Shown here one piece after another: positions 1-44,015 of a stretch of DNA of 44,015 nucleotides. How positions within the stretch are numbered: the first letter of the stretch is position 1; the number at the start of each line of letters is the position of its first letter. This DNA is from Escherichia phage vB_VIPECOTPH05B, in sequence record PQ429080.1. One strand, 5' to 3'. Below the pieces are notes generated by a model. The model saw nothing but the letters and a program-made list of their open reading frames with translations. It made no database searches and was not told the DNA's origin. The translations under genes and the position numbers were made by a program.

Positions 1-1857
1 TTATCTTCTTCCTCTATGTTGTTTACCTCTGCCCCGGCTCTGCAGCCGAGCAGCTACACCCCGAAGGCCCTTAGACACTTTGCTCTGTGCCCAATCCAAC
101 GGGTTCTCAATGAAGGCCCGAGCCATCTTCTCAGACTCACGCTCAGCCACTACTTTCTCGTCTTCCACCAGGTGCCCGTTCAGCGTAGCCACCATCATGG
201 CGATTGCGTCTGCTCGGTCATCCTTAGCCAGGCTACCGCGGTCGTACGTGATACCAGCCAACTGTGTGAACGCAGAGTACAGCCAACGTCTATCGCGGGA
301 GTACGCCATACAGGTACTGATATCGTCGTGAACCGCACGCTCATGCACCACCAGGCGGTGACGGCGAGTAACTGGGCTGATTGTGTCGATTATACGACGC
401 TCTTTCTGCGTGGAGTTGTTCAGGTCCCTTACACCGATACCGGCGAGACGTCGCTCCCGTAACCGGTTCAGGATAAGCATAGACACGGTGCCGTGCCCCA
501 TGTTGCTCTCCACCACCATATCCGGGATGTCTAACTCTACGCACAGGTCAATCAGTTTATCAATGTTCTCTTCGCTGATACCTCCTTGGAAGCCGCCTAC
601 GGAGAATAGGTGGATGTACGAGTTCGCAGCACCACCAGCAGCGTAGGACACTTCGTCTCCGCCACAACCAGCCGGGTCCACCACCAGCACCTTATGCTGG
701 TACGGCAGGTGCATATCCCCGTAGAATGCTGGGAAGTACATCTGCTGACCCATAATCCCCTCATGCTCGTGCTGGTACAGGTACCGGCGGTCTGCAATGT
801 AAGAGAACGTCTCGGGAGAGGAATCCTGACTGCCTGAGTAAACCAGCATATCCGAAAGCTTGATGCGTGTACGCATCTGGTCGGACAGGGTGGTATCGAG
901 CATGTACTGTAGCTGGAAGCCCTCCGGACCGAAGTCCAGCTCCTTCTCAATCAGTGCATCCTCATCATAGCGCCCAGTGTCTGTGCTCTCGCCTAGCGTC
1001 CCGTCGACGCCGAAGCCGGTGCGTTTATAGCCGCGCTCAATAAGCTCCAGTATATAAGGAGCAAGTGTACTTCCATATCGCTCTTCCATTTCAACAGATG
1101 GAATGCGCCCAGGCCACACGCGGACCTCAAAGCCACGTCCCGGCAGGGTTTTATAGATGCTGTCCTTGGTCTGCGGTGTGCCAAGGTACAGTATGTCCCC
1201 ATGCGTACAGATAGCTGCGAAGTCCTTCGAAATCATCAGCAGCTGCTCACGCTGGGTTTGCGTTAAGCCGTTCTTGGTGGTCTCGATATCGTCTGGAATC
1301 AGCAGGTCCGCACGCTTCCCCTGCAGGGATGCAGTGATACCTACACAGGCCACGCTGGCGGACTTATCCAGTGGTTTCAGGTCGCAGTTGACATCATAAC
1401 CTTCGAATGAAGTACGGTCCCCACGAGTAGGGTCAGCCTTCAAGTAGCACAGCAGTGGCCAGGTTTCCAACATACGAATGATTAGGTTCGCTACATCGGA
1501 CGCCTGCTTCTCTGCACCAGACACAATCAGAATACGGCAGGATTGGTCCTGGATAAGCCTCCAGACGGCATAGAGTGCAGCCAGTGTAGACTTAGCTTCA
1601 CCACGCTGTGCGGCCACCATGCGCTTCCTAGGGCCCTTCTGCATGTACTCTGCAATGTCGGCCTGCATGTCCGTCAGCGTAAAACCCAGGAATCGCATAC
1701 CGATGTACGCGAATTCCCGGAAGTCACTTAACGCAGCGGCCATCATCATCGCGATGTCCTCGCGCTCCTCTTTGGGAATACTGCGCGGATTCGCACTATA
1801 ACCAGTAAGTTTCTGGTTGAGCATGCGCAGTCTTCGCGCAGTCTTCACCGATACCAT
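1..1857 (-). CDS. Terminase large subunit (T7 gp19-like packaging ATPase/nuclease)
   Basis: 618 aa; ATPase-like N-terminal half and nuclease-like C-terminal half typical of T7-group large terminases; last gene of the structural block; stop codon (TAA) occupies window positions 3..1. Confidence 0.88.
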   Translation of the reverse strand: MVSVKTARRLRMLNQKLTGYSANPRSIPKEEREDIAMMMAAALSDFREFAYIGMRFLGFTLTDMQADIAEYMQKGPRKRMVAAQRGEAKSTLAALYAVWRLIQDQSCRILIVSGAEKQASDVANLIIRMLETWPLLCYLKADPTRGDRTSFEGYDVNCDLKPLDKSASVACVGITASLQGKRADLLIPDDIETTKNGLTQTQREQLLMISKDFAAICTHGDILYLGTPQTKDSIYKTLPGRGFEVRVWPGRIPSVEMEERYGSTLAPYILELIERGYKRTGFGVDGTLGESTDTGRYDEDALIEKELDFGPEGFQLQYMLDTTLSDQMRTRIKLSDMLVYSGSQDSSPETFSYIADRRYLYQHEHEGIMGQQMYFPAFYGDMHLPYQHKVLVVDPAGCGGDEVSYAAGGAANSYIHLFSVGGFQGGISEENIDKLIDLCVELDIPDMVVESNMGHGTVSMLILNRLRERRLAGIGVRDLNNSTQKERRIIDTISPVTRRHRLVVHERAVHDDISTCMAYSRDRRWLYSAFTQLAGITYDRGSLAKDDRADAIAMMVATLNGHLVEDEKVVAERESEKMARAFIENPLDWAQSKVSKGLRGVAARLQSRGRGKQHRGRR

Positions 1858-2159
1858 TAGACAATTCCTTCTAGTAAGTCCTCAGAGTCTGAACCACCAA
1901 CTTTATTTAGAATCTCTTGCTTACGCGCCTCTCTGCGCGCCGCCAGTTCGTCATCGAACTCGTCACGAAGGTCCTGCATCTCCTCGGAATCTGCATCCGC
2001 GGTAATGTCATTGTCCTTCAAGAACTTAGCGATAACTGATTTATCTGCGGCGGGGAGCGGCACCTCATCTTCCTTAGACTGCTTGATTTCTTCAATCAAG
2101 GCCTCGGTGAACATGCGGTGCAGCTCCGAGAGGCGACTGCGTTTAGCCGCCCCTGCCAT
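1857..2159 (-). CDS. Terminase small subunit (gp18-like)
   Basis: 100 aa, charged and helical, immediately upstream of the large terminase; its TAA stop overlaps the large-terminase ATG (TAATG). Assigned by position and size. Confidence 0.55.
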   Translation of the reverse strand: MAGAAKRSRLSELHRMFTEALIEEIKQSKEDEVPLPAADKSVIAKFLKDNDITADADSEEMQDLRDEFDDELAARREARKQEILNKVGGSDSEDLLEGIV

Positions 2160-4431: not shown

Positions 4432-7400
4432 TTAATCGTCTCCGAAGTTATTGATGATAGCTCGCGTAGGTGCGAATTCCTGTATTAGCGGCACCTGCTT
4501 AGTGAAGGTCTTTATATCCATATTACCGGTAGCCAGGTCCTGTACGGCCCCGAGCAACCCTGTGACGTAACCCATAGATGCCAACGAGTGACGAGGGGAA
4601 TCTCCCAGGAAGATATCCTGCAGTAAGGATACCCCGCCGATGGCACTCATACCCATTACGGACTCGCTGATGAGTTTCTGAGTGTCTACGTCCTTACCAT
4701 CCATGCCATGCTTAGCCATAGTAGCCAGCAGCATTAACGGGAACTGGTACGCCATAATATGGGCTACGCCAATCCACCCAGCGTCGTTCAGCTCTCTGCG
4801 CAGAATCTTGTTAGTGGCTGCCAGTGCGAAGCTCTGGTACCCTACAATGACTTTGCCGATAGGATTGAACTGTGCAAAGTGCGAGGTCTCTCCAGTACGA
4901 ATCTGCTGTACCAGGTAGTCCATCATACGCGTCCCCACAACCTCAACTTGCATCTGCAGGTCCGGCTGGAACATAGCGCCCGGGTTAGCCTTGTTGGCAG
5001 CGATAGCGCGGTCAGCAACATCGCGAGTAAGCCCGAAACGCTCCAGACGCTTAAACGCCTCAGCATCGCCCTTGAACATCTGAGTAAGCTCGTCCGCCAC
5101 AATACCGGAGTTCAGGTTCACCTGTAGCCGGTGCACCATGCTCATACCGTTGACGTGACGGGCAGCCTGCCCAACGTTCTGGGTGACGTTGAACCAGGAG
5201 GCCTGACGGGTCAGGTCCAGGTTATCGTCAGCGTACGTATTCAGCCAGCGGAAGCGCATCTCCTTCTGAATATTACCCCGCAGCACGGTATCTAGACGAG
5301 CAGCCATATCCGGGGTCTTGATAGCCACGGCACCTTCCTTGAACCAAGGCTGGTCACGCATACTGCGCAGCACTCTAGCCATACCGAACTCCTTCATAGC
5401 CAAAGCAGTATCGGTCAGCTGATACAGGCCGGAGTTCTTAAGCATAGTGGCGTTTGCCATATTCCCAGCTGCACGCAGCAAGTCCGGAAGCTGCCCAGCG
5501 TCAGCAGGTGCCCCACCCAGGATAAAGTCGATGGTGTCATTGACGGTCTTCTCCCACTTGGCGGAATCCGCTAGTACGTGCTTAGACTCATCAATCATCT
5601 TGGCGAGCTGTCCCAGGTCCTGTACGCCTGCATAGGCCATACCTACACGTCCAGACATACGGTTAGTGTACCCGTGCATAACCTTGGCTACGTCAGTATC
5701 CATCAGGTCCTGCATGCGCATGCTCTTACCGTTCACCAGATACTCTTTATCCATGTTGAACCGAGTACGCTGGCGCAAGTTCCGCGCAGGGGATGTGCTG
5801 CCGGATTCGCGTACGTTACCAGCCAGGAAGCTCTGGATTGCAGACTCTTCTACACCGGCGCTGCGCATAGCCATAACGACCTCGTCGTTACCCATGCCGT
5901 TAATCAGCTGCTTCCACATAGGGCCAGCCTGCCCAGCACGGCCATTGTAGATGCCGTCAACCATCTCCTTAGCAACACGCTGCACTACCTCTGACTCCAT
6001 GCTCGGGTACACATCCCGCAGGGCGGACCGGAACAGGGCGCGGTAGTCATCCAGGGTATTGCCTTGTGCGATACCTTGGCGCATCTTGTCGTAGCTGTAC
6101 TGGCGCGGGAAGTAGTAGTCGGATTTAACCAACGCACCATCATCCACTAAACCGGCATTGAGCATATGCTCGTGCCACTTGCTAGCCCAGCCAGAGCGGC
6201 GATAGGCGTCAACCAGTGGAGCAATCTCTGCGTCCGGCACCGGCACAGCGCGGCCGTTTACGTCAGCGCTGTAGGCAGCATCCAGGTACTTGCTCAGGCG
6301 GTCTTCCAGCGCAGCCCGCTCAGCGCGGAAATTACTACGATGGAAGAAGCGTGAGAGTACACCTACACCCTTATCCTTCAACGCGCCCAGGATAGCATCT
6401 TCCACTACGCTGGCGCGAGCATCCATCTCCAAAGTTAGGTTACGCTTGTAGTCTACCACTGACGGGCGACGGCCGCCTACTGCGGACGCATCCGACACTA
6501 GCAGTTTAGCCAAGTCTTCGTTGCCTTGGGCGATATTATCGTACAGGGCAAACATAGTGGAGAGCTTCTTCTTAGCGCCGTCCAGCATAGCTTGGGCGCG
6601 CTTAGCCTCATTGAGGGTGGTGCTGCCCGCCAGGTCCTGGAAGGCTTCGCTACGGAAGCTCTGGGCTTGGTCTGCATAATCCTTAGCTGTCCACTTAACT
6701 GCGTCCTCATACGCATCCAGGACATCTTCCAAGGCAGAGCCTTTTGCCTTGATGCCCAGAGCGTTCATGATGTACTCACCCAGTTGGCGGAGCATACTCT
6801 TACCGGTGGGAGACTGCGTACGTGCCAGGTGCTCAACCCACTCAGGGCTGTCGCCTAAGCCTGCCAGCATCTCATGCACATTACTTGCGTAATACCGCAT
6901 ACGCGGTGTCAGGGTGGAGTCAGCCGCAATAACAGCGCGCACTTCCTCCAGGCGTTTAGCAATCTCGGGATTACTGTCAATGGCGCGCGCAGTAGCAGCA
7001 TGAATCAGTTCGTGCACGGCCACCTTGCTTGTATCTGCATCCATAGCGCGCAGCGCATCGCCGACTGTAGTCCAGGTGCTGCCGTTAGCTTGCTTAGGCG
7101 CACGCAGGGATATCTCTCCCCGCTTAGCTAAATCTTGTTGTGCGTAAGTGTAGCGGCTACGGTTTGCGGAGCCTGCTACCAGTTTAAAATCAATGTCATT
7201 TACAGCATCGCCCAGCGTGTACAGAATAGCCTTCTGTCCTGCTGTCAAGTGCTCAGACTTCTTCAAGAACTGAACTACGTGCTGTGCTTTCATGTTCACG
7301 GAGGCGGTATTGTTTCTCGATACTTGGATGCTTTCATCCAGTGTCTTAGTGAGAATTTCCTCTCCCTCTCCTACTCCGGTAACATTAGCATCCCTCGCTG

Positions 7401-8130
7401 TACGAGTTGTAGGCGCTTCTGGGTCGAACATGGGCTCACGCCCAGTACGAGCCTTAGCGGCAGCTTTAGCAGCCCTAGACATATCCCAGAGCTGGTCTAA
7501 CCCAGCTACGCCCGCTATCAGTGCAGTTACCGCGGCGGACTGGCCCAGTTGGTCCTGTGCATAGAACGCAGTGCCTACATCAGCAGCGCGGATAGCGGTA
7601 CGTGCAGCTAAGCCCGCGCGGCCAGCAATACCGGCGGCAGACATCGGGGCCAGGATGAACGGGGAGTCGCCTACCAACATACCCGCGAACCCGGCTACTG
7701 TGTTGTCGGCCATTAAGCGGTCACGGTCACGTTGCTCAAGCATCTGCTGCATGCGGTAGTTGTAATCTTCCACAGACACGGAGTCGTGCAGGTACTCAAT
7801 CTCTTCCTGATTCGGAGCATACAGCTTAGCCCGAGTATCGCTACTCAGGGTCTGCTTAGCATTAAAGTTCGGGTCTCGGTCAAATGCCGGAGCAGAGGCC
7901 TTGCGGATAGCTGCGGCGATTATGCTGTTGCCCATACCTGACGCAAAGCTCTCTGCGGCTGTAGTAGCCGGAGTCTTGGCTTGCGCTAGTAATGAGGCAC
8001 GCTCCAGTGCGTTCAGGCCGTTGTCCCCGGCATCGTTCCAATCTACGCGCTCAGGCGCAGGTTTAAGTGTTGCGCCCTTAGCAGAATCCTTTTCCTGTGG
8101 ATTCGGTTCTTGGTTCAGAAACTGAGCCAT
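4432..8130 (-). CDS. Internal virion (core) protein, largest (T7 gp16 / phiKMV gp37-like)
   Basis: 1232 aa, Ala-rich and predicted helical; third of three consecutive large genes between tail tube B and tail fiber. No transglycosylase motif recognised by eye. Confidence 0.7.
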   Translation of the reverse strand: MAQFLNQEPNPQEKDSAKGATLKPAPERVDWNDAGDNGLNALERASLLAQAKTPATTAAESFASGMGNSIIAAAIRKASAPAFDRDPNFNAKQTLSSDTRAKLYAPNQEEIEYLHDSVSVEDYNYRMQQMLEQRDRDRLMADNTVAGFAGMLVGDSPFILAPMSAAGIAGRAGLAARTAIRAADVGTAFYAQDQLGQSAAVTALIAGVAGLDQLWDMSRAAKAAAKARTGREPMFDPEAPTTRTARDANVTGVGEGEEILTKTLDESIQVSRNNTASVNMKAQHVVQFLKKSEHLTAGQKAILYTLGDAVNDIDFKLVAGSANRSRYTYAQQDLAKRGEISLRAPKQANGSTWTTVGDALRAMDADTSKVAVHELIHAATARAIDSNPEIAKRLEEVRAVIAADSTLTPRMRYYASNVHEMLAGLGDSPEWVEHLARTQSPTGKSMLRQLGEYIMNALGIKAKGSALEDVLDAYEDAVKWTAKDYADQAQSFRSEAFQDLAGSTTLNEAKRAQAMLDGAKKKLSTMFALYDNIAQGNEDLAKLLVSDASAVGGRRPSVVDYKRNLTLEMDARASVVEDAILGALKDKGVGVLSRFFHRSNFRAERAALEDRLSKYLDAAYSADVNGRAVPVPDAEIAPLVDAYRRSGWASKWHEHMLNAGLVDDGALVKSDYYFPRQYSYDKMRQGIAQGNTLDDYRALFRSALRDVYPSMESEVVQRVAKEMVDGIYNGRAGQAGPMWKQLINGMGNDEVVMAMRSAGVEESAIQSFLAGNVRESGSTSPARNLRQRTRFNMDKEYLVNGKSMRMQDLMDTDVAKVMHGYTNRMSGRVGMAYAGVQDLGQLAKMIDESKHVLADSAKWEKTVNDTIDFILGGAPADAGQLPDLLRAAGNMANATMLKNSGLYQLTDTALAMKEFGMARVLRSMRDQPWFKEGAVAIKTPDMAARLDTVLRGNIQKEMRFRWLNTYADDNLDLTRQASWFNVTQNVGQAARHVNGMSMVHRLQVNLNSGIVADELTQMFKGDAEAFKRLERFGLTRDVADRAIAANKANPGAMFQPDLQMQVEVVGTRMMDYLVQQIRTGETSHFAQFNPIGKVIVGYQSFALAATNKILRRELNDAGWIGVAHIMAYQFPLMLLATMAKHGMDGKDVDTQKLISESVMGMSAIGGVSLLQDIFLGDSPRHSLASMGYVTGLLGAVQDLATGNMDIKTFTKQVPLIQEFAPTRAIINNFGDD
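7369..7388 (-). promoter_or_regulatory. Conserved element TTACCGGAGTAGGA, copy 3 (inside the largest internal virion protein gene)
   Basis: 14-nt exact match to the core of the other two copies, same orientation, followed by GAGGGAGAGG. Confidence 0.25.
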
Positions 8131-19366: not shown

Positions 19367-19388
19367 TCCTACTCCGGTAACTTCATTT
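19367..19388 (-). promoter_or_regulatory. Conserved element AAATGAAGTTACCGGAGTAGGA, copy 2 (candidate phage-RNAP promoter)
   Basis: Between the RNAP stop and the first late-side gene; 21 of 22 nt identical to the copy at 41059..41080. Confidence 0.35.
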
Positions 19389-19389
19389 A

Positions 19390-21858
19390 TCAGCAGAAGA
19401 AGAAAGGTGATTCCAATACCTGCCGGATGTCCAGAGTACCAACCTCAGGCATATCCAGGTCCGTCAAATCCGCCCCGGCGGCTGCCGCCGCGCGAGTGAT
19501 ATCCCCAAGCAGGTCGTGCTCTTCATAGAGGCGCACAAACTGTTCTCGGATGTGTCGGTGCAGAGCGTCAACATCGGCTGCATGTGTAGCCAGGGAGTCG
19601 TGAATCGGCACAATGTCCAGACCCTCGGCGGCACATAGAACCATCATCAAGTGTGTACTATCCAGGCTATGCACAAAGTTCGGGGCAATCCCAGAGGCTG
19701 CCTTGCGCTTGTTGCAGGTCTTGAAATCCCGATTATGCACGCGCATGATTGTGAGGTTCATACAGTCAATTCGTACCCGCACTTCTTCACGCTGTGTGTA
19801 GCGGTTCATTACGAGCCCACCCAGTGGCGTATACCACTGCAGGTGCTGGCTTGCCGGTACACGCCTAGCGAGGTTCTGCAAGTACGACATAACTGCCGCA
19901 GCAGCAGGGTTTGCCTCCTCGATAGCGGCGCGCATACGCGGAGCCAGGTAGCACGACAGATTCCATAGACTGTTAGTGTCGGTACCTTCATACCCCTCAG
20001 CGCAAGCGCCTTCAAAGATGTAGTCACTGCAGCTGCGCACCGTGGCGCTGTAGAAGTAGGTCATACTGGGGCGCTTGGTCATACTGCGGGTGATTTCGTT
20101 CTCTCTCCAGTACGTACTTTGGATAACGAAATCCTCCTTGTCCAGGTCCAGTATCACCTTCTCGTCCGTACGGCGCTTCACGTCCATGTACAGGTCCGCT
20201 TTCTTGTCGTTACCCTCCCAGTACAGGTTCGTTAGACGACCTCCCACAGGGTCTCTCAGGAGCGCTGAGAGGTGTTGCCCACCTGAGTTTGTAGCGTCCA
20301 TAGCAACTGGGATTCGGCTAATATGCTCTTCTGGGCATCCAGAACGCACAGCATTAACCAGATCGATAGCGGCCGCCAGAAAACACCAGGGGCTGTCTGC
20401 CTCGGCAAAAGCATGGCAATCAAACGGTGAAACCACAAGCTCTTCGAGCGCTGCAAAGTTCGCATCAACCCAAGCTGCGCGGTCTTCGAATAGGGTTTTG
20501 TCATAACCAAAGCATGTGGCGACGTGTACCTTGAGCCAGAATAGTCCCCGCTCACCCAGAGGTTTTCCTCTGCCAAACTCAAGAAGGGCTTTCTGCAAAT
20601 CAGAACCTTGGGGGTGCAGCGAGGACTTGAAGTACAGGCGGTAGCGCCAGTCCACACAAGTCGGGAAGTACAGTGCTTTCTCATCTTTGAATTCCTCTGC
20701 CATTTCCAACGTAGTCAGAAGGCTGCGCAGTTGCGATACACGCTTACGGTCGGCGCTGTACCATAGGGACATACGCGTCTTCCACTCACCGAAGCGGTCA
20801 AGCTCTTCCTCGGTGTAGTTCTCTTTCGGAACCCCGTCCAGATACCACTCCGGTTTCGGCTCCGGTACTGAGCGAGGCATACCTATCCCAACACCCAGGG
20901 CCCGTGCTTCTTGCACCAGTTCAAGTATGCGCTTATTAATACGGTATGGGGTTTCCTGTGCCTTATTAAGCGCTTTTTTGATGCCATCCGCGGACTTAAA
21001 TGCTTCCGCTACTTCACGGAGACGAGCTCTGTCAATGTGCGAGTTATGATAGGTTCCGCGATTGTCGATAGTGGTGAGGTACCCACCGTCCCACAGAGTA
21101 GTGTGCTGCACCGGCGGTACCAGCATAGGCGGCTTCATGGTTACAGTGTCAGCGGACTCTACCAGTTTCTGGAAGGCCTCCATAACGTCGTCAGCCGGAT
21201 AGAGCATGCTCAGATTCCCGCTACAGTTCTTCCACTGGAACAGTCCCGTCTCAAACACTGCGGCACACAGCAGACGCCCTACGGAGATGTTCTGGGCATT
21301 GGTCCAAGGCTCGTGCCCGTAGTGTACGTTCTCGGCACTGGCACGGAGCGTACGCAGGATGTGCGTAGGGGACTTCGTACGGCGCTCTGTGAGGTACTCA
21401 TACACGCGGTCCATGTACGCTGGGGCTACGTTGCGTAACTGCAGAGCCAGTAGCTCTGACTGTACGTTTCTGCCTAGTGCGGACATTACAGCCTGTGCAG
21501 TCTGACGGCGACTGGCGGACTCGCCGGGGGCGACGCTGAACGCCTCAAACATTGTGCACAGGCTCAGGGTGGTCAGGACATCCAAGGGGATTAAGCGCAG
21601 GAACCGGCGGTACTTCCCACCTATGCCAGGGGCTTTGACATTTCGCATCTCATCTATAGCGGCAGCAGCCACTTCGTATGCCGAAGTGAGCATACGCTGC
21701 GTCATAGGCAGGTTCATAATACCACCGTTCTGCAACGCGTCCGTAATCAGCTTACGTGCCCGCTCGATTCCGCGAATCTTATAGGCCTCTTCAAGCTCCA
21801 GCTGGCGTTTCACCAGTGCTTCCTCTGGTACTACAACCGTATTCAGGGCGCTAATCAT
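19390..21858 (-). CDS. Single-subunit DNA-dependent RNA polymerase (T7 RNAP family)
   Basis: 822 aa; T7-RNAP-like motifs (VAMDATNSGGQHLSALL; late PNFVHSLD/H-D region); located at the end of the replication block, directly upstream of structural genes. Confidence 0.95.
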   Translation of the reverse strand: MISALNTVVVPEEALVKRQLELEEAYKIRGIERARKLITDALQNGGIMNLPMTQRMLTSAYEVAAAAIDEMRNVKAPGIGGKYRRFLRLIPLDVLTTLSLCTMFEAFSVAPGESASRRQTAQAVMSALGRNVQSELLALQLRNVAPAYMDRVYEYLTERRTKSPTHILRTLRASAENVHYGHEPWTNAQNISVGRLLCAAVFETGLFQWKNCSGNLSMLYPADDVMEAFQKLVESADTVTMKPPMLVPPVQHTTLWDGGYLTTIDNRGTYHNSHIDRARLREVAEAFKSADGIKKALNKAQETPYRINKRILELVQEARALGVGIGMPRSVPEPKPEWYLDGVPKENYTEEELDRFGEWKTRMSLWYSADRKRVSQLRSLLTTLEMAEEFKDEKALYFPTCVDWRYRLYFKSSLHPQGSDLQKALLEFGRGKPLGERGLFWLKVHVATCFGYDKTLFEDRAAWVDANFAALEELVVSPFDCHAFAEADSPWCFLAAAIDLVNAVRSGCPEEHISRIPVAMDATNSGGQHLSALLRDPVGGRLTNLYWEGNDKKADLYMDVKRRTDEKVILDLDKEDFVIQSTYWRENEITRSMTKRPSMTYFYSATVRSCSDYIFEGACAEGYEGTDTNSLWNLSCYLAPRMRAAIEEANPAAAAVMSYLQNLARRVPASQHLQWYTPLGGLVMNRYTQREEVRVRIDCMNLTIMRVHNRDFKTCNKRKAASGIAPNFVHSLDSTHLMMVLCAAEGLDIVPIHDSLATHAADVDALHRHIREQFVRLYEEHDLLGDITRAAAAAGADLTDLDMPEVGTLDIRQVLESPFFFC

Positions 21859-21999: not shown

Positions 22000-22461
22000 T
22001 CACTTGGCGTCAATGCACTTACCTCGGTGCTGCTCGTACAGTTCTGAGTACTTGTCGGACTTGGCAATGTCCTGCTCCAGCTTATCCTTGTTCCCGGCGC
22101 GCAGTCTGTACTTGAGCCGATTCCCTAAGCAGTAGCCGTAGAACTGCTCTTGTGTCATGCTGCGTGCAATGACCTCAATCGCCTCCAGGTCCGGGAAGAA
22201 CTGGTAGTGCTGAGGGGAGTTTACTGCGTCAGGCGCTTTCGGAGTACTTTTCGGCAGTCTCGTCGTACTAATCAGTTGGAAGCAGTCAGGGTCCCACGTG
22301 TGACCGTTACAGCCCTCCAGTATTAAAAGGCCGTGAAATGTGTCTGTAACAACAAGAGGGTGCCCGTCCGACATGCCTAGTTCGTGGCAGAATTGAGCCC
22401 AGTGTGGTTTCCTATGTTGTGCAAGGCGCATAACTACATCACCTTCTTTGAACTTACTCAT
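22000..22461 (-). CDS. Hypothetical protein, member 3 of the MSKFK-G-D-VV paralog family; C-terminus DUF3310-like
   Basis: 153 aa; N-terminus MSKFKEGDVVMR shared with two other genes; C-terminal HYQFFPDLEAIEVIARSMTQEQFYGYCLGNRLKYRLRAGNKDKLEQDIAKSDKY recalls the phage DUF3310 pattern (from memory, unverified). Confidence 0.5.
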   Translation of the reverse strand: MSKFKEGDVVMRLAQHRKPHWAQFCHELGMSDGHPLVVTDTFHGLLILEGCNGHTWDPDCFQLISTTRLPKSTPKAPDAVNSPQHYQFFPDLEAIEVIARSMTQEQFYGYCLGNRLKYRLRAGNKDKLEQDIAKSDKYSELYEQHRGKCIDAK

Positions 22462-25564: not shown

Positions 25565-26398
25565 TTAGGCTTGAGGTGCAGCAGGCGCTGCTGGCGCTAC
25601 AGGAGCCGCGGGGGCCACTGGAGCAGCTGGGGCTGCCGGTGCTTGCGGTGCAGCGGGAGCCGCCGGTGCAGAAGGAGCAGCAGGTGCCTGCATAGCTGCC
25701 GGACTCGGAACAGAGCCAGCGTTCAGCATAATATCCAGAGCACTGCCCGGGAAGTCAACAGCCTTGTACATGTCTTCCTGAATCCAGTTCTTGCTCTTAC
25801 CGTCGTCGAAGGTGCCTTCGATGTGCAGGCTATCCCAGGTCTCTTTGGTTGGGTTGTTCCACAGGAACAGCTTAATCTCAGAGGCATCCAGGGCTGGCAT
25901 CTTGATAGGCTCGCCGGTGTTCGGGTCGAACTTCGGAATCGGGCGGATACCGGACAGGTCCACGATGTTAGACTTCTTGCCCGCGGCACTGGTGTGCTCA
26001 TCAATCGGGAAGGTGAAGGCCTGCCCCAGACGCTGTGCCGCATGCTTAATGCTGTTGTCGTAATTGAGCTTGTCGAAGAACTTCTTGAAGCCTGCTCGCT
26101 CAAAGTTACTGATAGCCATCGGGTACGGGCGGATACGCTTCACTTCGCCGTTAGGGCCGAACACTACAATGCCAATGCGTACGTTAGACACTGCAGGCTT
26201 ACCAGTAGGCTTACCACCCTTAGTCGGCAGGCGCTTACCGATTTCCACGTACTCGGTGAAGTAGCCGTAGTACTCACCCTTCGGAAGCAGCACATCCTCG
26301 TACGCACCACCCTGTGAGGTCTCGGTCATATCAACATCTTGCGTTTCGATCGCAGCAGCTACCAGGGAGTTCAGAGTGTCCAGTGCATTCATAGTCAT
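25565..26398 (-). CDS. Hypothetical protein with C-terminal Ala-Pro repeat tail (possible ssDNA-binding protein)
   Basis: 277 aa; GAGGA 10 nt upstream of ATG; ends in about 40 residues of (A/P/Q/V/S) repeats; sits in the replication block where T7-like phages encode SSB, but no diagnostic motif was recognised. Confidence 0.5.
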   Translation of the reverse strand: MTMNALDTLNSLVAAAIETQDVDMTETSQGGAYEDVLLPKGEYYGYFTEYVEIGKRLPTKGGKPTGKPAVSNVRIGIVVFGPNGEVKRIRPYPMAISNFERAGFKKFFDKLNYDNSIKHAAQRLGQAFTFPIDEHTSAAGKKSNIVDLSGIRPIPKFDPNTGEPIKMPALDASEIKLFLWNNPTKETWDSLHIEGTFDDGKSKNWIQEDMYKAVDFPGSALDIMLNAGSVPSPAAMQAPAAPSAPAAPAAPQAPAAPAAPVAPAAPVAPAAPAAPQA

Positions 26399-32991: not shown

Positions 32992-33773
32992 TGTAAAGCC
33001 TCCAGAATCTCTTTGATTGTTGCATCCTTAGGGTCCGCAGCGAAGTAATGCTCACGGCACTGCATGAACGGACGCAGTGCTCGACGTGCTGCTGCTACCC
33101 CAGCGTGCCCTGCCGGGTCATTGTCCAGCATCAGAATCACTTCCGGGCGATTCTGAATCAGCCAAGCCCTCAGCGGCGTGGGCAAGCGTGTACCCAGCAT
33201 AGCTATAGCCTGCACGTTCAACGCACTGTAGTTCGTAACTGCGTGCTGTATCTTCCGGGCTGAGAGTAAGTCCTCGGTAAGCACGACCTTTAGAGGCGCG
33301 GCCGCAGCTACAGCCGGTGCTACGGCAGGTGCCGCGACAGCGAAAGCTATTGGCTGGCCGTACATTACCCACTTCGGTTGCTGCCGAGCATGCACTGCAC
33401 GGCCCAGAGCAGCGCTTCCGACACGGAAGATTATCCGCTGTTTCTCTTTGCTCCATTCTGCATCCTCCACCATTTCAGGCATGATTCCCTTTGTGGTCAG
33501 GAATCCGTAAATAAAACTCTGCGTTTCCGCAGGCGCTTGGCTAATGCAAATTGCATCTGCAGGTGCAGAGGGCTGCACCCTCGGCTCTTCCTGTAACTGT
33601 ATGCGCTGGTACTGCTTGTGCTCCTTGCCCACCTGCTTGCAGCGGTGGCAATAATATTCCCAGGCATCCGGGTTATTGTAGAGCACCCCGGCTTCGTCCC
33701 TGCCGCAGCACCGAAAGCGCGCCCTCTGCCCCACGGCCAGGCGCTTGCACGCTCTAAGCCAGGGTTGGTCCAT
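32988..33773 (-). CDS. DNA primase (zinc-binding domain plus TOPRIM)
   Basis: 261 aa; Cys pairs in the N-terminus (CCGRDEAG ... CHRCK) and TOPRIM-like acidic motif (VILMLDNDPAG); encoded separately from the helicase. Confidence 0.8.
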   Translation of the reverse strand: MDQPWLRACKRLAVGQRARFRCCGRDEAGVLYNNPDAWEYYCHRCKQVGKEHKQYQRIQLQEEPRVQPSAPADAICISQAPAETQSFIYGFLTTKGIMPEMVEDAEWSKEKQRIIFRVGSAALGRAVHARQQPKWVMYGQPIAFAVAAPAVAPAVAAAAPLKVVLTEDLLSARKIQHAVTNYSALNVQAIAMLGTRLPTPLRAWLIQNRPEVILMLDNDPAGHAGVAAARRALRPFMQCREHYFAADPKDATIKEILEALQ

Positions 33774-33991: not shown

Positions 33992-34470
33992 TGTGCTTTC
34001 TCCTTACGCTTGATTTCCATAGCCATGCGGCGCAGGTCGTGGGCCAACTGCAGTGCAGCGTCAGGTTCCAGGTTGATAGCCAGTATATTGCCGTAAGCTA
34101 GGGGATCAAACTTTTTACCGCTCTTCACTATGGCAATACTTAGGTGCCCCTCTAACTCCCAATGTGGCTGCACTAGCATGTGCTGGAAGTTGTCTTCACT
34201 GCTAGTGCTGTTATAGTACATAACGCTATCCGGAACCGGCGGCAGTTCGTCCTCTGGTTCTTGGTACAGCTCAAAGTTGCAGGCGGCCCAAGGATGTTCA
34301 TCATACACCTTAGACACACCATTTACCTGCAACCAGTAGCCCCCGGAAGGTACCGACGTAACTGTATAGTAGGCAGAGTCTCCGAGCATATGCAGAAAGT
34401 CTTCATCTTTACGGCCGCCTACTGTACGTACAACCTTATCACCAACTTTAAACTTAATAAACTTAGACAT
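33988..34470 (-). CDS. Hypothetical protein, member 1 of the MSKFK-G-D-VV paralog family
   Basis: 160 aa; begins MSKFIKFKVGDKVVRTVGG; ATG 2 nt after the stop of the peptidase-like gene. Confidence 0.5.
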   Translation of the reverse strand: MSKFIKFKVGDKVVRTVGGRKDEDFLHMLGDSAYYTVTSVPSGGYWLQVNGVSKVYDEHPWAACNFELYQEPEDELPPVPDSVMYYNSTSSEDNFQHMLVQPHWELEGHLSIAIVKSGKKFDPLAYGNILAINLEPDAALQLAHDLRRMAMEIKRKEKAQ

Positions 34471-39765: not shown

Positions 39766-40033
39766 TGCGTACTCCTTCAAAGTTAATGATTAACGCCCTA
39801 GCAGTATCTAGCAGGACGCTAACTCTTAACCTTGTTACCCACTGCACTACCGTGGAACCTGTGGTCAGGTCTCGGCGCTATTCTTTTAAGGGGCAGCGCC
39901 TCAGCGCCCCAGCCGTTTGTCGTCTCTGCTCTTGACGTTACATCTTTAATGCTACTGATTGTCTAGGATTGGTCGTCATCGTACCAGTCAAGGTACTGGG
40001 CCTCCCCGCAAACCAGCTTACTGCTTGCTATCT

Positions 40034-40062
40034 AAGTTACTCAGTGAATCAGAACTTGTCAA
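40034..40062 (-). promoter_or_regulatory. Candidate sigma70-type early promoter (TTGACA - 17 nt - TAACTT)
   Basis: Perfect -35 hexamer, 17-nt spacer, weak -10; in the ORF-free leader about 250 nt upstream of the first early gene. Confidence 0.3.
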
Positions 40063-40263
40063 GCGTTTATTTCTTACTGCATCGGGAGCCTGTTAACCTC
40101 CCCTGTGAGCTGTAGCCCCTCAGCGGGCGACTCTCTGGCTCCTGCCTTGCTCCACCACGGTGGGACACTTGCCGGGCTAGTCACGCCCTTGTTGGGTTGT
40201 AGTACCCTTCGGAACTGCTACCGTGGGAGCCGGTAGCGACCCTTACTACTTACTTCGGGATTC

Positions 40264-40292
40264 AATCTAGCTTATGTTCTTCGCGGTGTCAA
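40264..40292 (-). promoter_or_regulatory. Candidate sigma70-type early promoter (TTGACA - 17 nt - TAGATT) with A-rich upstream tract
   Basis: Minus strand reads GATAAAAAGAG-TTGACA-CCGCGAAGAACATAAGC-TAGATT; perfect -35, 17-nt spacer, 4 of 6 at -10. Confidence 0.4.
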
Positions 40293-40461
40293 CTCTTTTT
40301 ATCGAGTATCTAACCCTTCACACTATCTAGCCTTAATCCGGCGGAGCCTCCCGGCTAGGCCCCGGTTAGCCTAGCTAGTCGCTAGTGCCTCCCGGTGATT
40401 GAACTATAGCCCTATAGAACCAAAAGAAGCAAGCACTATTTTCAACTTTTTATCTCTGAGA

Positions 40462-40494
40462 GCAAAAAGGGTAAGCAGACCCCTAAAGGTCTGC
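40462..40494 (-). terminator. Possible terminator-like hairpin at the 3' end of the HNH gene
   Basis: GCAGACC-6 nt loop-GGTCTGC stem overlapping the HNH stop codon, followed on the minus transcript by UUACCCUUUUUG. Confidence 0.3.
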
Positions 40495-40869
40495 GTGCAG
40501 TAAGCTATTGTAATCCCCATAGGTTACGTCGAACTCTCGCCAGTTAGTGTCGTAGTCCGGACTAGCCAATAACTCCTCTTTTGTGAAACATCTCCCCTCC
40601 TTAATCTGCGCTAGGTGAATGGCGCGGTGAGTGTCGGCGCTAACCAATATCAGGTTATCAAAGGCGCAGTTAAGACGGTTACTGTCACAGTGATGTACAT
40701 GGTAGCCAGAGCCGTAGCTAGTGATACCCAGTGCATCCATAACCACGGCTCTATGCAGCGCCATAGTCCTACGGTCCTTTTTACCGTTCTTACGTATACA
40801 CGCTGGACCAGCACCGTTAATCACTGGATAGCCCTCTTTATCAACCACAATCTTAAATGTTCTAGCCAC
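40483..40869 (-). CDS. HNH endonuclease (third HNH gene in the window)
   Basis: 128 aa; HVHHCDSNRLNCAFDNLILVSADTHRAIH motif; apparent GTG start with TAAGGAG 8 nt upstream; flanked by the two longest ORF-free stretches. Confidence 0.7.
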   Translation of the reverse strand: MARTFKIVVDKEGYPVINGAGPACIRKNGKKDRRTMALHRAVVMDALGITSYGSGYHVHHCDSNRLNCAFDNLILVSADTHRAIHLAQIKEGRCFTKEELLASPDYDTNWREFDVTYGDYNSLLHADL

Positions 40870-40879
40870 AACAATAACT

Positions 40880-41694
40880 CCTTACATAGTGATGAGTAGC
40901 GTAACCATAGCGACGATATCCCGGAGGGATAGGAGCGGAGGTTACAAGATTCTAGGGATAGCAGCCTACTGCGTAGGCACAGGGCTATCCTAGTGAATAC
41001 CTAGTAGGGACTAGTAAGGACTAGTATTAAGTAGTGTGTATATAGTGCCCTAAAACCCTCCTACTCCGGTTACTTCATTTCATAATAGCTTTCGAATGAA
41101 AGTAAGAGCAAAGGGATAGCATTGGGATAGCGCTGGGATAGCGGCAGAGTGTGGATGTGCGCCCTAGTGGGGAGCGCGCAGCGTAGCATATAATTAGCAC
41201 AATGTAAAGCCCCAAGGATAGCCAGTGGATAGCCTAGTGCATACTAGGGATAGCACTAGGGATAGCACCACAGCGCACTAGCTGGCCCACTAGGCAGGCA
41301 CAAAATAAGCAAGGCAGAGCGCACCCCTATGGCCCACAGGGAGCGCACAGGGAGCGCCTAGTGAACGCACAGGGATAGCACCAGTGCCCCATAGAGCGCA
41401 CAGGAAGCCCTACAAGGCACGCACAGGCAAAGCCATAGGGTAGCACTAGCAATAGCCCTAGCGCAGCGCAGAGAGCCACTGAGGCCCACTGGTGCGCCCT
41501 AGCAGGCCCACCCAGTGCCCCCCCCCTAAATTGGCGCTAGGCACCCCCTATGGGGGCAATTGGGCGCGCTGAGGGTGAGGGACCCTGCCGCGTGAGTATA
41601 ATAAATTTCGGGTTCAGGTATAGACGTGCACCCGGATAGCCCCAGATAGCCCCACATAGACGCCCAGTGCTTACTCTAGTACTTACCCTAGCAC
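40880..41694. repeat. ORF-free repeat-rich region: at least 10 copies of GGATAGC plus CACAGGG/CACTAGG motifs, a C9 homopolymer and short tandem repeats; probable genome-terminus region
   Basis: No ORF of 60 aa or more on either strand across about 800 bp; GGATAGC at about 40956, 41114, 41125, 41136, 41216, 41227, 41248, 41259, 41373, 41634 (first three tandem copies spaced 11 bp); C-run at 41518..41526. Confidence 0.6.
41059..41080 (-). promoter_or_regulatory. Conserved element AAATGAAGTAACCGGAGTAGGA, copy 1 (candidate phage-RNAP promoter)
   Basis: 21 of 22 nt identical to the copy after the RNAP gene; lies in the repeat region upstream of the HNH gene. Confidence 0.35.
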
Positions 41695-41880
41695 TTATTC
41701 TGCGATAGCCCCGGAGGCCCGCAGGGACGCTAACAGGGCCGCCAGAGTAACCGCCAGTGCCTCTGCCGTAGTATCGGTAGCATCAGCTACAGCAACCCCT
41801 TGCAGTACCCCGCCGATAGAGTCCGTAGTAGCTTCCGGTAATACCGGTGCCTTTGCTTGTACAAGCTCAACCAGTGCCAT
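41695..41880 (-). CDS. Hypothetical small protein (61 aa) at the distal end of the lysis cassette
   Basis: ATG 1 nt after the endolysin stop; Ala/Val/Thr-rich with a hydrophobic C-terminal stretch; no lipobox. Confidence 0.4.
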   Translation of the reverse strand: MALVELVQAKAPVLPEATTDSIGGVLQGVAVADATDTTAEALAVTLAALLASLRASGAIAE

Positions 41881-41881
41881 A

Positions 41882-42490
41882 TTAACCTCCTACCCCTTTA
41901 AGCGCAGCGATTGCTGCATTCACATTCTTGTACTGGTTCCCAATAGCTTTGCTCTGCCACTGCCTGCGCTCCCATAGGCCCCAGCACACTTTATTGCGCT
42001 GCCCGTTAACGTATTGGGAACAGTCGAAGGTCCAGCGGTTGCCGCCCTTGTACACCCAGCCAGTGCCGGGGGACTTCTGCTGGTACTTGCTAATATAGCG
42101 CCAGTCCAGCACAGCCTTCGCGGCCGATGCATAATCAAGGCTTTTGAGGTGGCGCTTCACGGAGCTTCCGTTGAAACCCGCCACGCCTACGTTGTACGTG
42201 AAGTCCAGGGCACCTAGCAGGGCCACGTCAGAGAGCTGCATAGGAAGCCCGTCAAGAGCTTTTGCATGCTCCCCTGCTGATTGTATCAGTTGCTTCTGAC
42301 AATCGCTCAGCGTGGCTCTCTGGCCCATTTTGACGCCCTTTGTCTCACCGTAGCAGATAGTCGGGACACCGGCGCTATCCTTATAGGCAGTAAGGCTCAA
42401 CCCCTCGTTATGCTGCACCACCCCGGTAATAGCGCCGCCAAGCATAGTGGCCCCCGTAAGGGCCGCCACAACCTTAGTCCTTAAACTCAT
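41882..42490 (-). CDS. SAR endolysin, T4-lysozyme-type muramidase (GH24-like)
   Basis: 202 aa; weakly hydrophobic Gly/Ala-rich N-terminus (KVVAALTGATMLGGAITGVV) followed by the catalytic E-x8-D-x5-T pattern (NEGLSLTAYKDSAGVPT); start overlaps the holin 3' end. Confidence 0.85.
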   Translation of the reverse strand: MSLRTKVVAALTGATMLGGAITGVVQHNEGLSLTAYKDSAGVPTICYGETKGVKMGQRATLSDCQKQLIQSAGEHAKALDGLPMQLSDVALLGALDFTYNVGVAGFNGSSVKRHLKSLDYASAAKAVLDWRYISKYQQKSPGTGWVYKGGNRWTFDCSQYVNGQRNKVCWGLWERRQWQSKAIGNQYKNVNAAIAALKGVGG

Positions 42491-42725
42491 ATTTAATAGT
42501 CCCCTTACGTGCCTGCTCCTCTAGGAGCTTGAATGTACGCCGCTTGTAATACGCATTCCACGCCAGGGTTAGCACTGCGCACACCGTCGCAGTGATGAAG
42601 CTGATAGTGCTCCAGTTCCAGCTCATTACTTCTGCCACCCAACCTCCAGATACAGCCGCTGTAGTGGCTGTAGTCCCTGCCTTGGTGATTACGTCAGTAG
42701 ACACTACATCCGAAACCTTAATCAT
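42474..42725 (-). CDS. Holin (pinholin-like)
   Basis: About 83 aa from first ATG; weakly hydrophobic first segment, strong TM helix (WSTISFITATVCAVLTLAW), charged C-terminal tail; immediately upstream of and overlapping the SAR endolysin. Confidence 0.55.
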   Translation of the reverse strand: MIKVSDVVSTDVITKAGTTATTAAVSGGWVAEVMSWNWSTISFITATVCAVLTLAWNAYYKRRTFKLLEEQARKGTIKYEFKD

Positions 42726-43692: not shown

Positions 43693-44015
43693 TTACTCAA
43701 TAGAGATTGCTGTGATTACACCGTCTTCTACAGTGATCGTCGCTGCTACGGTAGCAGTAGCTCCCGCCTCCCGGGCGGTGGTAAACGTAATGGGTACGGT
43801 TACTTCTGCGCCATTACCTACAACCACTACAGCGCCACCATCAGAGGCGCCTGCAGCAGCCAGTGCAGCTACTGCTACAGCCCCTGCTGCATCTACGTCC
43901 GGACCAAGAGTATCTAGCGGGCCGGTATCATGTGCCAAGGTTGTTGCTTTATCAAGTGCTACCGCTGCATTACGTACTGCCTGGCGCTGTGCCAGTGTTG
44001 CTTCTGCAAATGCCA
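43693..44015 (-). CDS. Hypothetical Ala-rich protein, 5' end runs off the window edge; likely starts at an ATG formed by position 1 plus 44015..44014
   Basis: Reading frame is open to position 44015; under circular wrap the codon (1, 44015, 44014) on the minus strand is ATG, in frame, overlapping the large-terminase stop as TAATG, giving a 107-aa protein. Confidence 0.5.
   Translation of the reverse strand, partial: AFAEATLAQRQAVRNAAVALDKATTLAHDTGPLDTLGPDVDAAGAVAVAALAAAGASDGGAVVVVGNGAEVTVPITFTTAREAGATATVAATITVEDGVITAISIE

Follow-up and report, generated by a model that had tools for sequence, protein, structure and literature searches.

The window analysed here is the whole 44,015-nucleotide stretch of record PQ429080.1 (Escherichia phage vB_VIPECOTPH05B), and the segment of interest runs from 40880 to 41694. 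The ORFs that flank it code for an HNH endonuclease, a lysozyme and a head-fibre-like product of 61 aa, and the last ORF before what is described below as the right-end spacer occupies 41695–41880. The segment had been described from its letters as free of ORFs of 60 aa or more. This is borne out, as the longest ORFs lying within it are 50, 46, 43 and 39 aa in length and none reaches 60 aa; a 94-aa plus-strand ORF (40615–40899), antisense to the HNH gene, extends into its first 20 nt. In the relative AttikonH4 two small ORFs are annotated in the corresponding region. Neither these nor the ORFs of 39–50 aa are regarded as genes, because relatives vary here by indels of 11- or 12-nt units and because one of the AttikonH4 ORFs overlaps the terminal repeat, and the small ORFs annotated here in related records are probably spurious. 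An Rfam scan of 40000–42500 (E ≤ 1) gave no match to a structured RNA, and a search of the whole window with ARAGORN was negative for tRNAs.

The window is 99.9% identical to GenBank Drulisvirus records, which are KP34-like Klebsiella phages of the T7 family. It encodes a T7-type terminase large subunit (PF22530, 1.3e-30, ORF 1–1857), a T7-type terminase small subunit (PF11123, 1.7e-19, ORF 1857–2159), a single-subunit RNA polymerase (PF00940, 5e-88, ORF 19390–21858) and a family A DNA polymerase. The assembly is circularly rotated and reverse-complemented, and the terminal repeat is present only once because the assembly has been collapsed and rotated. An assembler would have merged both repeat copies, after which the sequence would have been rotated and reverse-complemented to begin at the terminase gene. 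Read in the orientation of the phage, which is the minus strand of the window, the segment contains the following features.

41581–41694, minus strand: unique DNA of the right end, a spacer separating the terminal repeat from the last ORF, defined by alignment; its sequence holds two heptamers at 10-bp spacing, GCTATCT (41650–41644) and GCTATCC (41640–41634).
41317–41580, minus strand: predicted direct terminal repeat of 264 bp, collapsed to one copy, from homology to the ends of relatives.
41543–41556, minus strand: 14-nt palindrome CCCCCATAGGGGGT, at offset 25 from the left end.
41518–41526, no strand assigned: C9 run (G9 in phage orientation) within the repeat, roughly 8 to 13 in length in relatives.
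41373–41379, minus strand: single GCTATCC within the repeat, 56–62 nt from its right boundary.
41292–41316, minus strand: conserved block directly after the repeat (TGCCTTGCTTATTTTGTG...), from alignment.
41216–41266, minus strand: heptamer array B, four GCTATCC starting at 41266, 41254, 41233 and 41222 (spacings 12, 21 and 11).
41180–41208, minus strand: sigma70-like promoter candidate, from alignment, with −35 TTTACA (41208–41203) and −10 TACGCT (41185–41180).
41114–41142, minus strand: heptamer array A, three GCTATCC at exact 11-bp spacing, from repeat finding and alignment.
41062–41077, minus strand: predicted left-end phage RNA polymerase promoter TGAAGTAACCGGAGTA, predicted start 41061, from homology to KP34 S2.
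41001–41026, minus strand: 10-bp tandem repeats, TACTAGTCCT-like, 2.6 copies, found by TRF just downstream of the phage promoter.
40956–40990, no strand assigned: distal inverted pair of GGATAGC, 40956–40962 (plus) and 40984–40990 (minus), flanking the palindrome CCTACTGCGTAGG.

The first-pass annotation had suggested that the physical ends of the genome lie in this segment, and homology supports this, in that the known ends of relatives align at 41580 and at 41317|41316. The relatives with annotated ends are fHe-Kpn01, where the ends were mapped experimentally, KP34 and AttikonH4. The passages of the fHe-Kpn01 paper that deal with its termini describe restriction digests, ligation with Sanger sequencing and PhageTerm (PMC7291057). 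In blastn alignments position 1 of both fHe-Kpn01 and AttikonH4 falls at 41580, and CCTCACCCT is also the first sequence of L021 and L026, both isolate genomes from IMG/VR. By homology the virion left end is thus at 41580 (CCTCACCCT...), on the minus strand and reading toward the early genes, with an uncertainty of ±1 nt because the KP34 annotation begins one C before this. Homology likewise puts the virion right end at 41317 (...GGGGTGCGCTC). The right boundary of the repeat, ...GCGCTC|TGCCTTGCTTATTTTG, corresponds to 41317|41316 of the window and is common to KP34 and AttikonH4, and in fHe-Kpn01 it reads ...GCGCTC|CGTCTTACCTATTTTG, differing by a few substituted bases beyond the junction. 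The left boundary motif is present in 19 and the right in 20 of the 23 sequences compared, a set that includes the window and some loci that stop short of the left end.

The length of the repeat varies through interior indels. It is annotated as 216 bp in KP34, both of whose boundary sequences are found in the window, as 222 bp in fHe-Kpn01 and as 297 bp in AttikonH4, the last two being exactly identical at both ends of their genomes, and is predicted at 264 bp in the window. Kpp-9 was not used as evidence: its two ends share only about 125 bp, starting 50 nt upstream of where the conserved end lies, and this overlap probably comes from the assembler. On sequence homology it is very likely that the termini and the terminal repeat are placed as predicted. 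The segment as a whole is likely to be a collapsed concatemer junction joined to the control region at the left end of a KP34-like phage (Drulisvirus, T7 family). This supplies the true ends and the correct orientation, with genome coordinate 1 at 41580 on the minus strand, and as a second 264-bp copy of the repeat is predicted to be missing, the true genome would be about 44.28 kb.

The sequences around the ends are unevenly conserved. Conservation to the window is 0.90 over the last 28 nt of the repeat, 0.83 over the block at 41292–41316 that follows it and 0.60 over the repeat interior. Within the spacer at 41581–41694 a genus-conserved block, GTCTATACCTGAACCCGAAATTTATTATACTCAC, stops 11 nt short of the left-end cut site; fHe-Kpn01 and AttikonH4 have it as well, in front of their right repeat. 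The terminal sequence carries a T7-like signature, with a YCTCAC start and a CCCCATAG-type palindrome about 25 nt in. For a comparison of ends the reference sequences NC_001604, NC_003298, NC_004831, NC_005045 and NC_013649 were read directly. CCCCCATAGGGGGT is identical to nt 26–39 of T7, and T3, SP6 and phiKMV have related sequences about as far from the end. The class II pause/terminator motif ATCTGTT, which is found directly after the repeat in T7 and T3 and at nt 174–180 in SP6, is absent at the right boundary of the repeat here, where TGCCTTGCTTATTTTG is found instead. The KP34-type polymerase may use another pause signal, and the block at 41292–41316 is a candidate for a right-end cut or pause signal.

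The segment is also marked by a short repeat, GGATAGC, or GCTATCC in phage orientation, for which at least ten copies had been reported from the letters. Ten direct copies are indeed present, starting on the plus strand at 40956, 41114, 41125, 41136, 41216, 41227, 41248, 41260, 41373 and 41634, together with one inverted copy at 40984. This compares with an expectation, in 815 nt, of 0.23 from a first-order Markov model and 0.13 from the genome rate; in the whole window there are 24 copies against 5.95 ± 2.3 in shuffles, and 24 was reached in 0 of 100 shuffles. The same reading of the letters had picked out a tandem triplet at 11-bp spacing (41114/41125/41136), the C9 run and further tandem repeats, all of which were recovered; the last have a 10-bp unit that reads CTAGTAAGGA on the plus strand, or TACTAGTCC-like on the minus strand, with 2.6 copies at 41001–41026. 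TRF also reports 11–12-bp arrays at 41107–41143, 41216–41268 and 41335–41375 and a 10-bp array at 41631–41659. The arrays adjoin the terminal repeat. Most copies are located in the left unique region rather than at the ends, with seven of the ten direct copies 51–203 bp inside this region and one 355–361 bp inside; of the other two, one is within the terminal repeat and one just outside.

Across 23 genomes the heptamers keep their offsets and are almost all in one orientation (142 forward and 2 reverse), with spacings of 11 (31 times), 12 (10 times), 21 (14 times) and 33 (5 times), and the array indels among relatives are whole 11- or 12-nt units. Array B is found at matching offsets in relatives with one to four copies, its indels being whole 12-nt units. 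Array A varies in the number of its 11-bp unit, from one to more than six copies, one relative (L027) having about five extra ACTCCAGCACA units, and some units have ACTCC in place of TATCC. Such variation makes it less likely that each unit of array A must have a strictly defined sequence. A copy in the part of the repeat around 41373–41379 is found in 20 of 23 relatives. Forward copies on the right-end side (41634–41650) occur in about 4 of the 14 relatives with enough upstream sequence, and the segment at 40956–40990 is common to only part of the relatives. The tandem repeats at 41001–41026 form a relatively A+T-rich stretch that varies in number and sequence (conservation 0.54). The stretch that runs from array B through the phage promoter hardly varies (0.83–0.98), with 0.90 for 41215–41150 and 0.975 for 41113–41040; selection on the heptamers is inseparable from selection on their surroundings.

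Arrays A and B bracket the sigma70-like promoter candidate, which has a 17-nt spacer and an extended −10 TG (41188–41187), is directed at the early genes and is invariant in relatives. A consensus promoter scan of 40400–42000 returned no sigma70 match, the scanner having passed over TTTACA-N17-TACGCT because the −10 hexamer matches at only 3 of 6 positions. A terminator scan over the same interval gave one terminator-like site, outside the segment. Further downstream, TGAAGTAACCGGAGTA is the positional homologue of the strong promoter S2 of KP34 (TGATGTTACAGGAGTA, KP34 nt 475–490), with a core of ACCGGAGTA in the window compared with ACAGGAGTA in KP34. The promoter experiments in the KP34 paper report activity in vitro at nt 475–490, 22197–22212 and 33721–33736 (PMC6834552). 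Two further copies of the window promoter sit at the other two of these positions, and TGAAGTAACCGGAGTA is predicted from its sequence to be a phiOL-type phage promoter inside the left end. The left-end phage promoter is thereby placed.

The likeness to T7 that had been proposed extends to the arrays, since CCTAAAG arrays are found on both sides of the 160-bp repeat in the actual T7 sequence. As in T7, the KP34-like group has exact direct repeats at both ends (seen in the relatives) and T7-type terminase genes, and its left end begins YCTCAC, carries CCCCCATAGGGGGT 25–26 nt from the end and continues with a unidirectional heptamer array inside the left repeat and then a phage promoter, at nt 405 in T7 and about nt 520 here. 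The differences are that the motif is GCTATCC with a period of 11–12 bp rather than CCTAAAG with 13 bp, that the arrays are split by the sigma70-like candidate, that the right-side array is clear in T7 and weak or absent in most Drulisvirus, and that the repeat is a predicted 264 bp instead of 160 bp. SP6 and phiKMV share the arrays of short motifs with a 10–12-bp period inside the left repeat and a CCCC(A/G)TAGG element about 25–30 nt from the left end, whereas their array motifs differ and the repeat of phiKMV is 414 bp. The SP6 terminal repeat is 174 bp. The motifs inside the left repeat are CCTAAAG in T7 (period 13), C[CT]TAAAG in T3 (12–13), CTTAGT in SP6 (12) and CCTGG[CG] in phiKMV (10–12), the first three arrays having been confirmed directly in the genome sequences. 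KP34 and fHe-Kpn01, which belong to the same Drulisvirus genus, share both repeat boundary sequences and the left-end architecture with the window, in which, unlike these two, an HNH gene follows the region.

The arrays are probably this phage family's counterpart of SRL, the CCTAAAG array beside the left terminal repeat of T7. The region is nothing unusual for such phages, in which it is for the most part already known, and would not surprise a specialist. Its layout, with a terminal repeat followed by a phased array of a short motif and then a left-end phage promoter, is common to phages from T7 through to the KP34-like group, which also share the CCCCCATAGGGGGT element and its constant distance to the left end, and together these narrow the search space for the poorly defined maturation signals of the T7 family.

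During infection head-to-tail concatemers would be formed with one repeat per junction, and the T7-type terminase (ORFs 1857–2159 and 1–1857) would cut at both boundaries, with duplication of the repeat. The candidate cut signals are the block that precedes the left end, the first 50 nt with CCCCCATAGGGGGT and the GCGCTC|TGCCTTGCTTATTTTG junction, chosen because these are the best-conserved parts of the repeat. In the preferred mechanism, a protein encoded by the phage would bind the phased heptamers and so flag the junction as the place to cut the right end or to start packaging; the small terminase or a maturation complex is the most plausible such protein. Phages whose hosts are close relatives carry different motifs, from which we infer that a phage-encoded reader is favoured over one from the host. 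The tentative suggestion is that the arrays act in junction processing or packaging. It is rather doubtful that each lineage uses its own array to load the small terminase or maturation complex, with array and protein co-evolving and the array fixing where the junction is recognised; were this true, the compact, conserved arrays of Drulisvirus would offer a clean system in which to approach the function of the T7 short-repeat arrays.

To our knowledge, the function of the T7 short-repeat arrays, including any role in packaging, has not been established. A full-text search by the names of the arrays (SRL and SRR) returned no paper, and a search of the T7 packaging and concatemer literature returned nothing on short-repeat arrays. 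The sections of the KP34 and fHe-Kpn01 papers that were searched contain no description of the heptamer arrays (PMC7291057, PMC6834552). Comparison of the heptamer with the sites of host factors (DnaA, PhoB/OmpR-type, NarL, IHF and Fis) also gave no convincing match. The nearest likeness, CTATCCACT to the DnaA box TTATCCACA, involves a single copy only.

The best-surviving alternative, though an unlikely one, is that the arrays are transcription-control sites, at which a phage or host regulator bound to phased repeats would switch early transcription on or off or set its timing, perhaps by shutting down the host polymerase's transcription once the phage polymerase has been made. Array B stops 7 nt upstream of TTTACA, and array A lies about 30–60 nt downstream of the predicted sigma70 start and 53–81 nt upstream of the phage-promoter start. 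The single orientation and the 11–12-bp spacing are typical of cooperative binding on one face of the DNA, and the near-invariance of the whole block within the genus fits as well; a role in transcription or replication would account for the position of the arrays equally well. Against this, the sigma70-like element is only a candidate and went uncalled by the scanner, no candidate regulator was identified, and T7, T3, SP6 and phiKMV retain the layout of an array by the repeat despite their differing promoter arrangements. Moreover, earlier work placed the host promoters farther downstream, at nt 931–959 of KP34 (PMC4411677), and their counterpart in the window, TTGACACCGCGAAG, is found at 40279–40292.

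T7 origins consist of a promoter plus an A+T-rich region, and an origin of this promoter-dependent kind would be modelled on the T7 secondary origin near phiOL, with transcription from the left-end promoter into the A+T-richer repeats priming DNA synthesis and the heptamers helping to bend or open the DNA. Directly after the phage promoter comes DNA that is richer in A+T and contains the 10-bp tandem repeats (41001–41040), and the promoter's position matches that of phiOL in T7 (nt 405, and nt 520 here). Such an origin is nevertheless improbable, given that the stretch 3′ of the promoter is poorly conserved (0.54) and that the neighbours are the HNH endonuclease and the lysozyme or head-fibre-like ORF rather than an initiator, no initiator gene being found among the eight ORFs scanned. 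The hairpin adjoining array A (41055–41115) was dropped because its fold is no better than those of shuffles (z −0.98), which likewise counts against an origin. The first-pass description of the repeats as iteron-like finds no support in the sense of a plasmid or lambdoid replication origin, as they consist of 7-nt cores in 11–12-nt units rather than iterons of about 17–22 bp.

It is just as improbable that the arrays lack a sequence-specific function and are microsatellite-like expansions, generated by slippage in a non-coding spacer for which only length matters, perhaps because, as in T7, several hundred bp are already inside the cell when transcription begins to pull in the genome. Close relatives differ by whole units, some units are degenerate and the motif differs in every T7-family subgroup examined, all of which would suit slippage. 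This is opposed by the orientation bias of 142:2 and by offsets that are fixed over 23 genomes in which the repeat interior is only about 60% conserved. In addition, there is almost no variation in the core of array B or in the two copies of array A that lie nearest the promoter, and the architecture recurs in distant subfamilies.

A phiKMV-type nick site, the consensus of which is CGACNNNNNCCTA/CTCCGG (PMC3517423), was rejected at 41060, where only the 3′ half, CCTACTCCGG, is present (41060–41069, plus strand, as the complement within the promoter) and TAAA replaces the upstream CGAC. The three exact copies of CCTACTCCGG, at 41060, 19368 and 7370, are all on the plus, non-coding strand and coincide with KP34-type phage promoters, and are therefore better explained as such. 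The tetranucleotide CTAG is enriched about 10-fold around the locus, with 29 copies in 40001–42000 against about 2 per kb elsewhere.

All long ORFs of the window lie on its minus strand, the phage orientation, and segment 40700-41900 shares 99.9% identity with five Klebsiella phages (vB_VIPKPN...) placed in the Autographiviridae, Slopekvirinae, Drulisvirus; in total 242 phage records match this segment, nearly all of them Klebsiella phages. T7-family machinery is confirmed by Pfam matches to the following products:

1-1857, minus strand: terminase large subunit
1857-2159, minus strand: small terminase subunit, T7 gp18-type
19390-21858, minus strand: single-subunit RNA polymerase, 822 aa
also matched: family A DNA polymerase

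Window position 1 coincides exactly with the terminase stop codon, and the ORF that follows the terminase gene has a start codon straddling positions 44015 and 1, so the window is a rotated, reverse-complemented circularised assembly whose ends are not the physical ends.

The physical ends and one collapsed terminal repeat can be placed by homology within 40880-41694, where the first-pass annotation had put the genome terminus, a position supported by the ends of fHe-Kpn01, AttikonH4 and KP34, which map there. In the Drulisvirus fHe-Kpn01, restriction analysis, PhageTerm, and ligation with Sanger sequencing established blunt ends and a 222-bp repeat (PMC7291057). The first nucleotide of the fHe-Kpn01 record and that of AttikonH4 (annotated repeat 297 bp) both align to window 41580, minus strand, whilst the annotated 216-bp left repeat of KP34, the type species, begins one base earlier than the equivalent of 41580. 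Two IMG/VR isolate genomes start exactly at CCTCACCCT, the same left-end motif. In fHe-Kpn01, AttikonH4 and KP34 alike the annotated repeat has ...GCGCTC as its last bases, followed by TGCCTTGCTTATTTTG in KP34 and AttikonH4 and by CGTCTTACCTATTTTG in fHe-Kpn01, and the corresponding right-end junction in the window is 41317/41316. From these shared boundaries the repeat is predicted to span 264 bp, 41317-41580. The window has a single copy of it, as expected if assembly collapses both terminal copies (a general statement, PMC10438801), and a second copy in the virion should make the true linear genome exceed the window by about 264 bp. Conservation is 0.79-0.90 at the repeat boundaries and over the first 50 nt, against 0.60 in the repeat interior, and length variation among relatives consists of interior indels. 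The ends of the Kpp-9 record (L004/L005, PQ285366) depart from the conserved termini and share an overlap of only ~125 bp; this overlap was rejected as a true repeat on both grounds and is probably an assembler overlap.

The genome sequences of T7, T3, SP6, phiKMV and KP34 were read directly for comparison of the ends. The left-end first bases are:

Present phage: CCTCACCCTCAGCGCGCCCAATTGCCCCCATAGGGGGTGCC
T7: TCTCACAGTGTACGGACCTAAAGTTCCCCCATAGGGGGTACC

An identical 14-mer palindrome lies at offset 25 here and at offset 26 in T7, and related elements, CCCC(A/G)TAG, lie at about equal distance from the left end in T3, SP6 and phiKMV. The palindrome shared at a near-equal offset gives independent support for the end assignment, and by homology the present phage carries a T7-like terminal signature. 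ATCTGTT, the class II pause/terminator signal at the T7 concatemer junction (for background see bioRxiv 10.64898/2026.02.12.705533), directly follows the repeat in T7 and T3 and lies at a similar place in SP6, whereas Drulisvirus has another conserved block, TGCCTTGCTTATTTTG, in this position.

The features around the terminus, in phage orientation, together with two further promoter copies, are:

41880-41695, minus strand: last gene, a 61-aa ORF after the endolysin
41266-41216, minus strand: following the repeat, a conserved junction block, then array B, four GCTATCC copies
41208-41180, minus strand: candidate sigma70-like element, invariant; TTTACA, 17-nt spacer with extended-10 TG, TACGCT
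41142-41114, minus strand: array A, three copies at exact 11-bp spacing, downstream of the sigma70-like element
41062-41077, 19370-19385 and 7372-7387, minus strand: predicted KP34-type phage promoters T(G/A)A(A/T)GT(A/T)ACCGGAGTA (phage coordinates ~504-519, 22196-22211 and 34194-34209)
downstream of the phage promoter: variable 10-bp tandem repeats, then a distal inverted heptamer pair
40483-40869, minus strand: first gene, HNH endonuclease (PF13392)

The ORF listing bears out that 40880-41694 holds no ORF of at least 60 aa, and the reported enrichment of GGATAGC (GCTATCC in phage orientation) also holds, with ten direct copies against about 0.13-0.23 expected, plus one inverted, including a triplet at 11-bp spacing; the whole window has 24 copies versus 5.95 +/- 2.3 in shuffles. 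The C9 run (41518-41526) and the 10-bp tandem repeats (41001-41026, with more 10-12-bp arrays close by) are likewise present. The C9 homopolymer, inside the terminal repeat, ranges from ~8 to 13 in length across Drulisvirus genomes, which could be true variation or a sequencing/assembly error hot spot. CTAG is enriched about ten times in 40001-42000 (29 copies versus ~2 per kb in the remaining genome), chiefly as CTAGTG/CACTAG and often joined to the heptamer (CCTAGTGCTATCC); the SP6 left end repeats the similar CTTAGTG.

Comparison was made over 23 sequences, namely 20 IMG/VR Drulisvirus loci fetched by a conserved 28-mer, the window, fHe-Kpn01 and AttikonH4. The heptamer arrays keep equal offsets in all 23, with 142 heptamers forward and 2 reverse, spacings of 11 (x31), 12 (x10), 21 (x14) and 33 (x5), and an extended consensus of approximately CYAGKGCTATCCCTAGG. 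Array A has from one to more than six units per genome and array B one to four, and in the alignment copy number changes in steps of complete 11- or 12-nt units, while ACTCC replaces TATCC in some upstream units. Comparable arrays lie just inside the left repeat in T3 (C[CT]TAAAG, period 12-13 bp), SP6 (CTTAGT, 12 copies, period 12 bp) and phiKMV (CCTGG[CG], period 10-12 bp), and T7 has 11 copies of CCTAAAG in nt 1-420 with a 13-bp period, three in the repeat and eight just after, plus a right-side array. The Drulisvirus arrays are a further instance of this family-wide layout, which in T7 has reportedly been known since Dunn and Studier sequenced the genome in 1983. Full-text search on array names found no paper on T7 array function, and T7 packaging terms gave nothing relevant. 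The first-pass annotation's T7-like flanking arrays are upheld on the left side and weak on the right, where the window has heptamers (41634-41650) but only ~4/14 relatives do; the majority of heptamers are located within the left unique DNA and not at the ends themselves. The terminus and array assignment of 40880-41694 is of use for annotation.

That reading of the region, supported for terminus and arrays, had missed its predicted promoters. After array A comes a 74-nt block of 97.5% conservation terminating in the 16-mer TGAAGTAACCGGAGTA (41077-41062), the positional homologue of the KP34 strong promoter S2 (TGATGTTACAGGAGTA, KP34 nt 475-490), which PMC6834552 describes as used in vitro by KP34 RNA polymerase. 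A left-end phage promoter is predicted by this homology at 41062-41077, which would make it the analogue of T7 phiOL. The core (plus-strand complement CCTACTCCGG) has exactly three copies in the window, on one strand only, coinciding in genome position with the three in-vitro-verified KP34 strong promoters; it reads ACAGGAGTA in KP34 and ACCGGAGTA here. The 10-mer CCTACTCCGG is also identical to the consensus 3' half of the phiKMV nick site (PMC3517423), with its copies on the non-coding strand. Since the CGAC half is missing here, promoter identity accounts for the three copies, though, given the overlap, one may ask whether nick sites of the phiKMV type are related to promoters. The probable single-strand nick of fHe-Kpn01 (MN380459), given at nt 7873 in PMC7291057, corresponds to none of the three CCGGAGTAGG sites. 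TTGACACCGCGAAG, a host promoter conserved in KP34-like phages (PMC4411677), lies at 40292-40279, beyond the HNH gene.

As established for the T7 family, head-to-tail concatemers would hold one repeat per junction, a T7-type terminase would cut both repeat boundaries, and the repeat would be duplicated during end formation. A tentative reading is that a phage-encoded protein recognises the phased heptamer arrays and so marks the junction to be processed or packaged. Their place beside the right-end cut, single orientation and helical phasing fit cooperative loading, and the different motifs in phages whose hosts (E. coli, Salmonella, Klebsiella) closely resemble one another argue against a host factor. 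It is rather doubtful that the arrays control transcription from the flanking promoters. The sigma70-like element begins seven nt after array B and, as the promoter scanner made no call there, is only a candidate. A promoter-dependent origin of the T7 phiOL type, for which the predicted phage promoter would serve, is unlikely, and it is similarly improbable that arrays so constant in offset lack sequence-specific function. 'Iteron-like' in the sense of an iteron-type origin is not supported, since the repeats fall short of iteron length and no gene for an initiator lies next to them.

The HNH gene (40483-40869), which separates the left-end non-coding region from the early, conserved host promoter (40279-40292), resembles an inserted mobile homing-endonuclease gene; its segment is common to only ~4/23 aligned sequences (the window, AttikonH4 and two IMG/VR loci, L014 and L022). 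Two small hypothetical proteins annotated in AttikonH4 (L001, PP978611; record nt 161-337 and 424-555), within the terminal repeat/array region, are probably spurious. At the other end, the 61-aa ORF (41695-41880) matches the head fibre family PF11133 over the family's C-terminal 53 residues only (E 8e-6); gene content there varies in relatives, with a tail fibre gene in AttikonH4 and Kpp-9. Elsewhere, 18- and 27-nt tandem repeats (GGAGCAGCAGGAGCC...) at 25582-25688 lie inside a 277-aa ORF (25565-26398, minus strand) and imply a repetitive, low-complexity segment in its protein.
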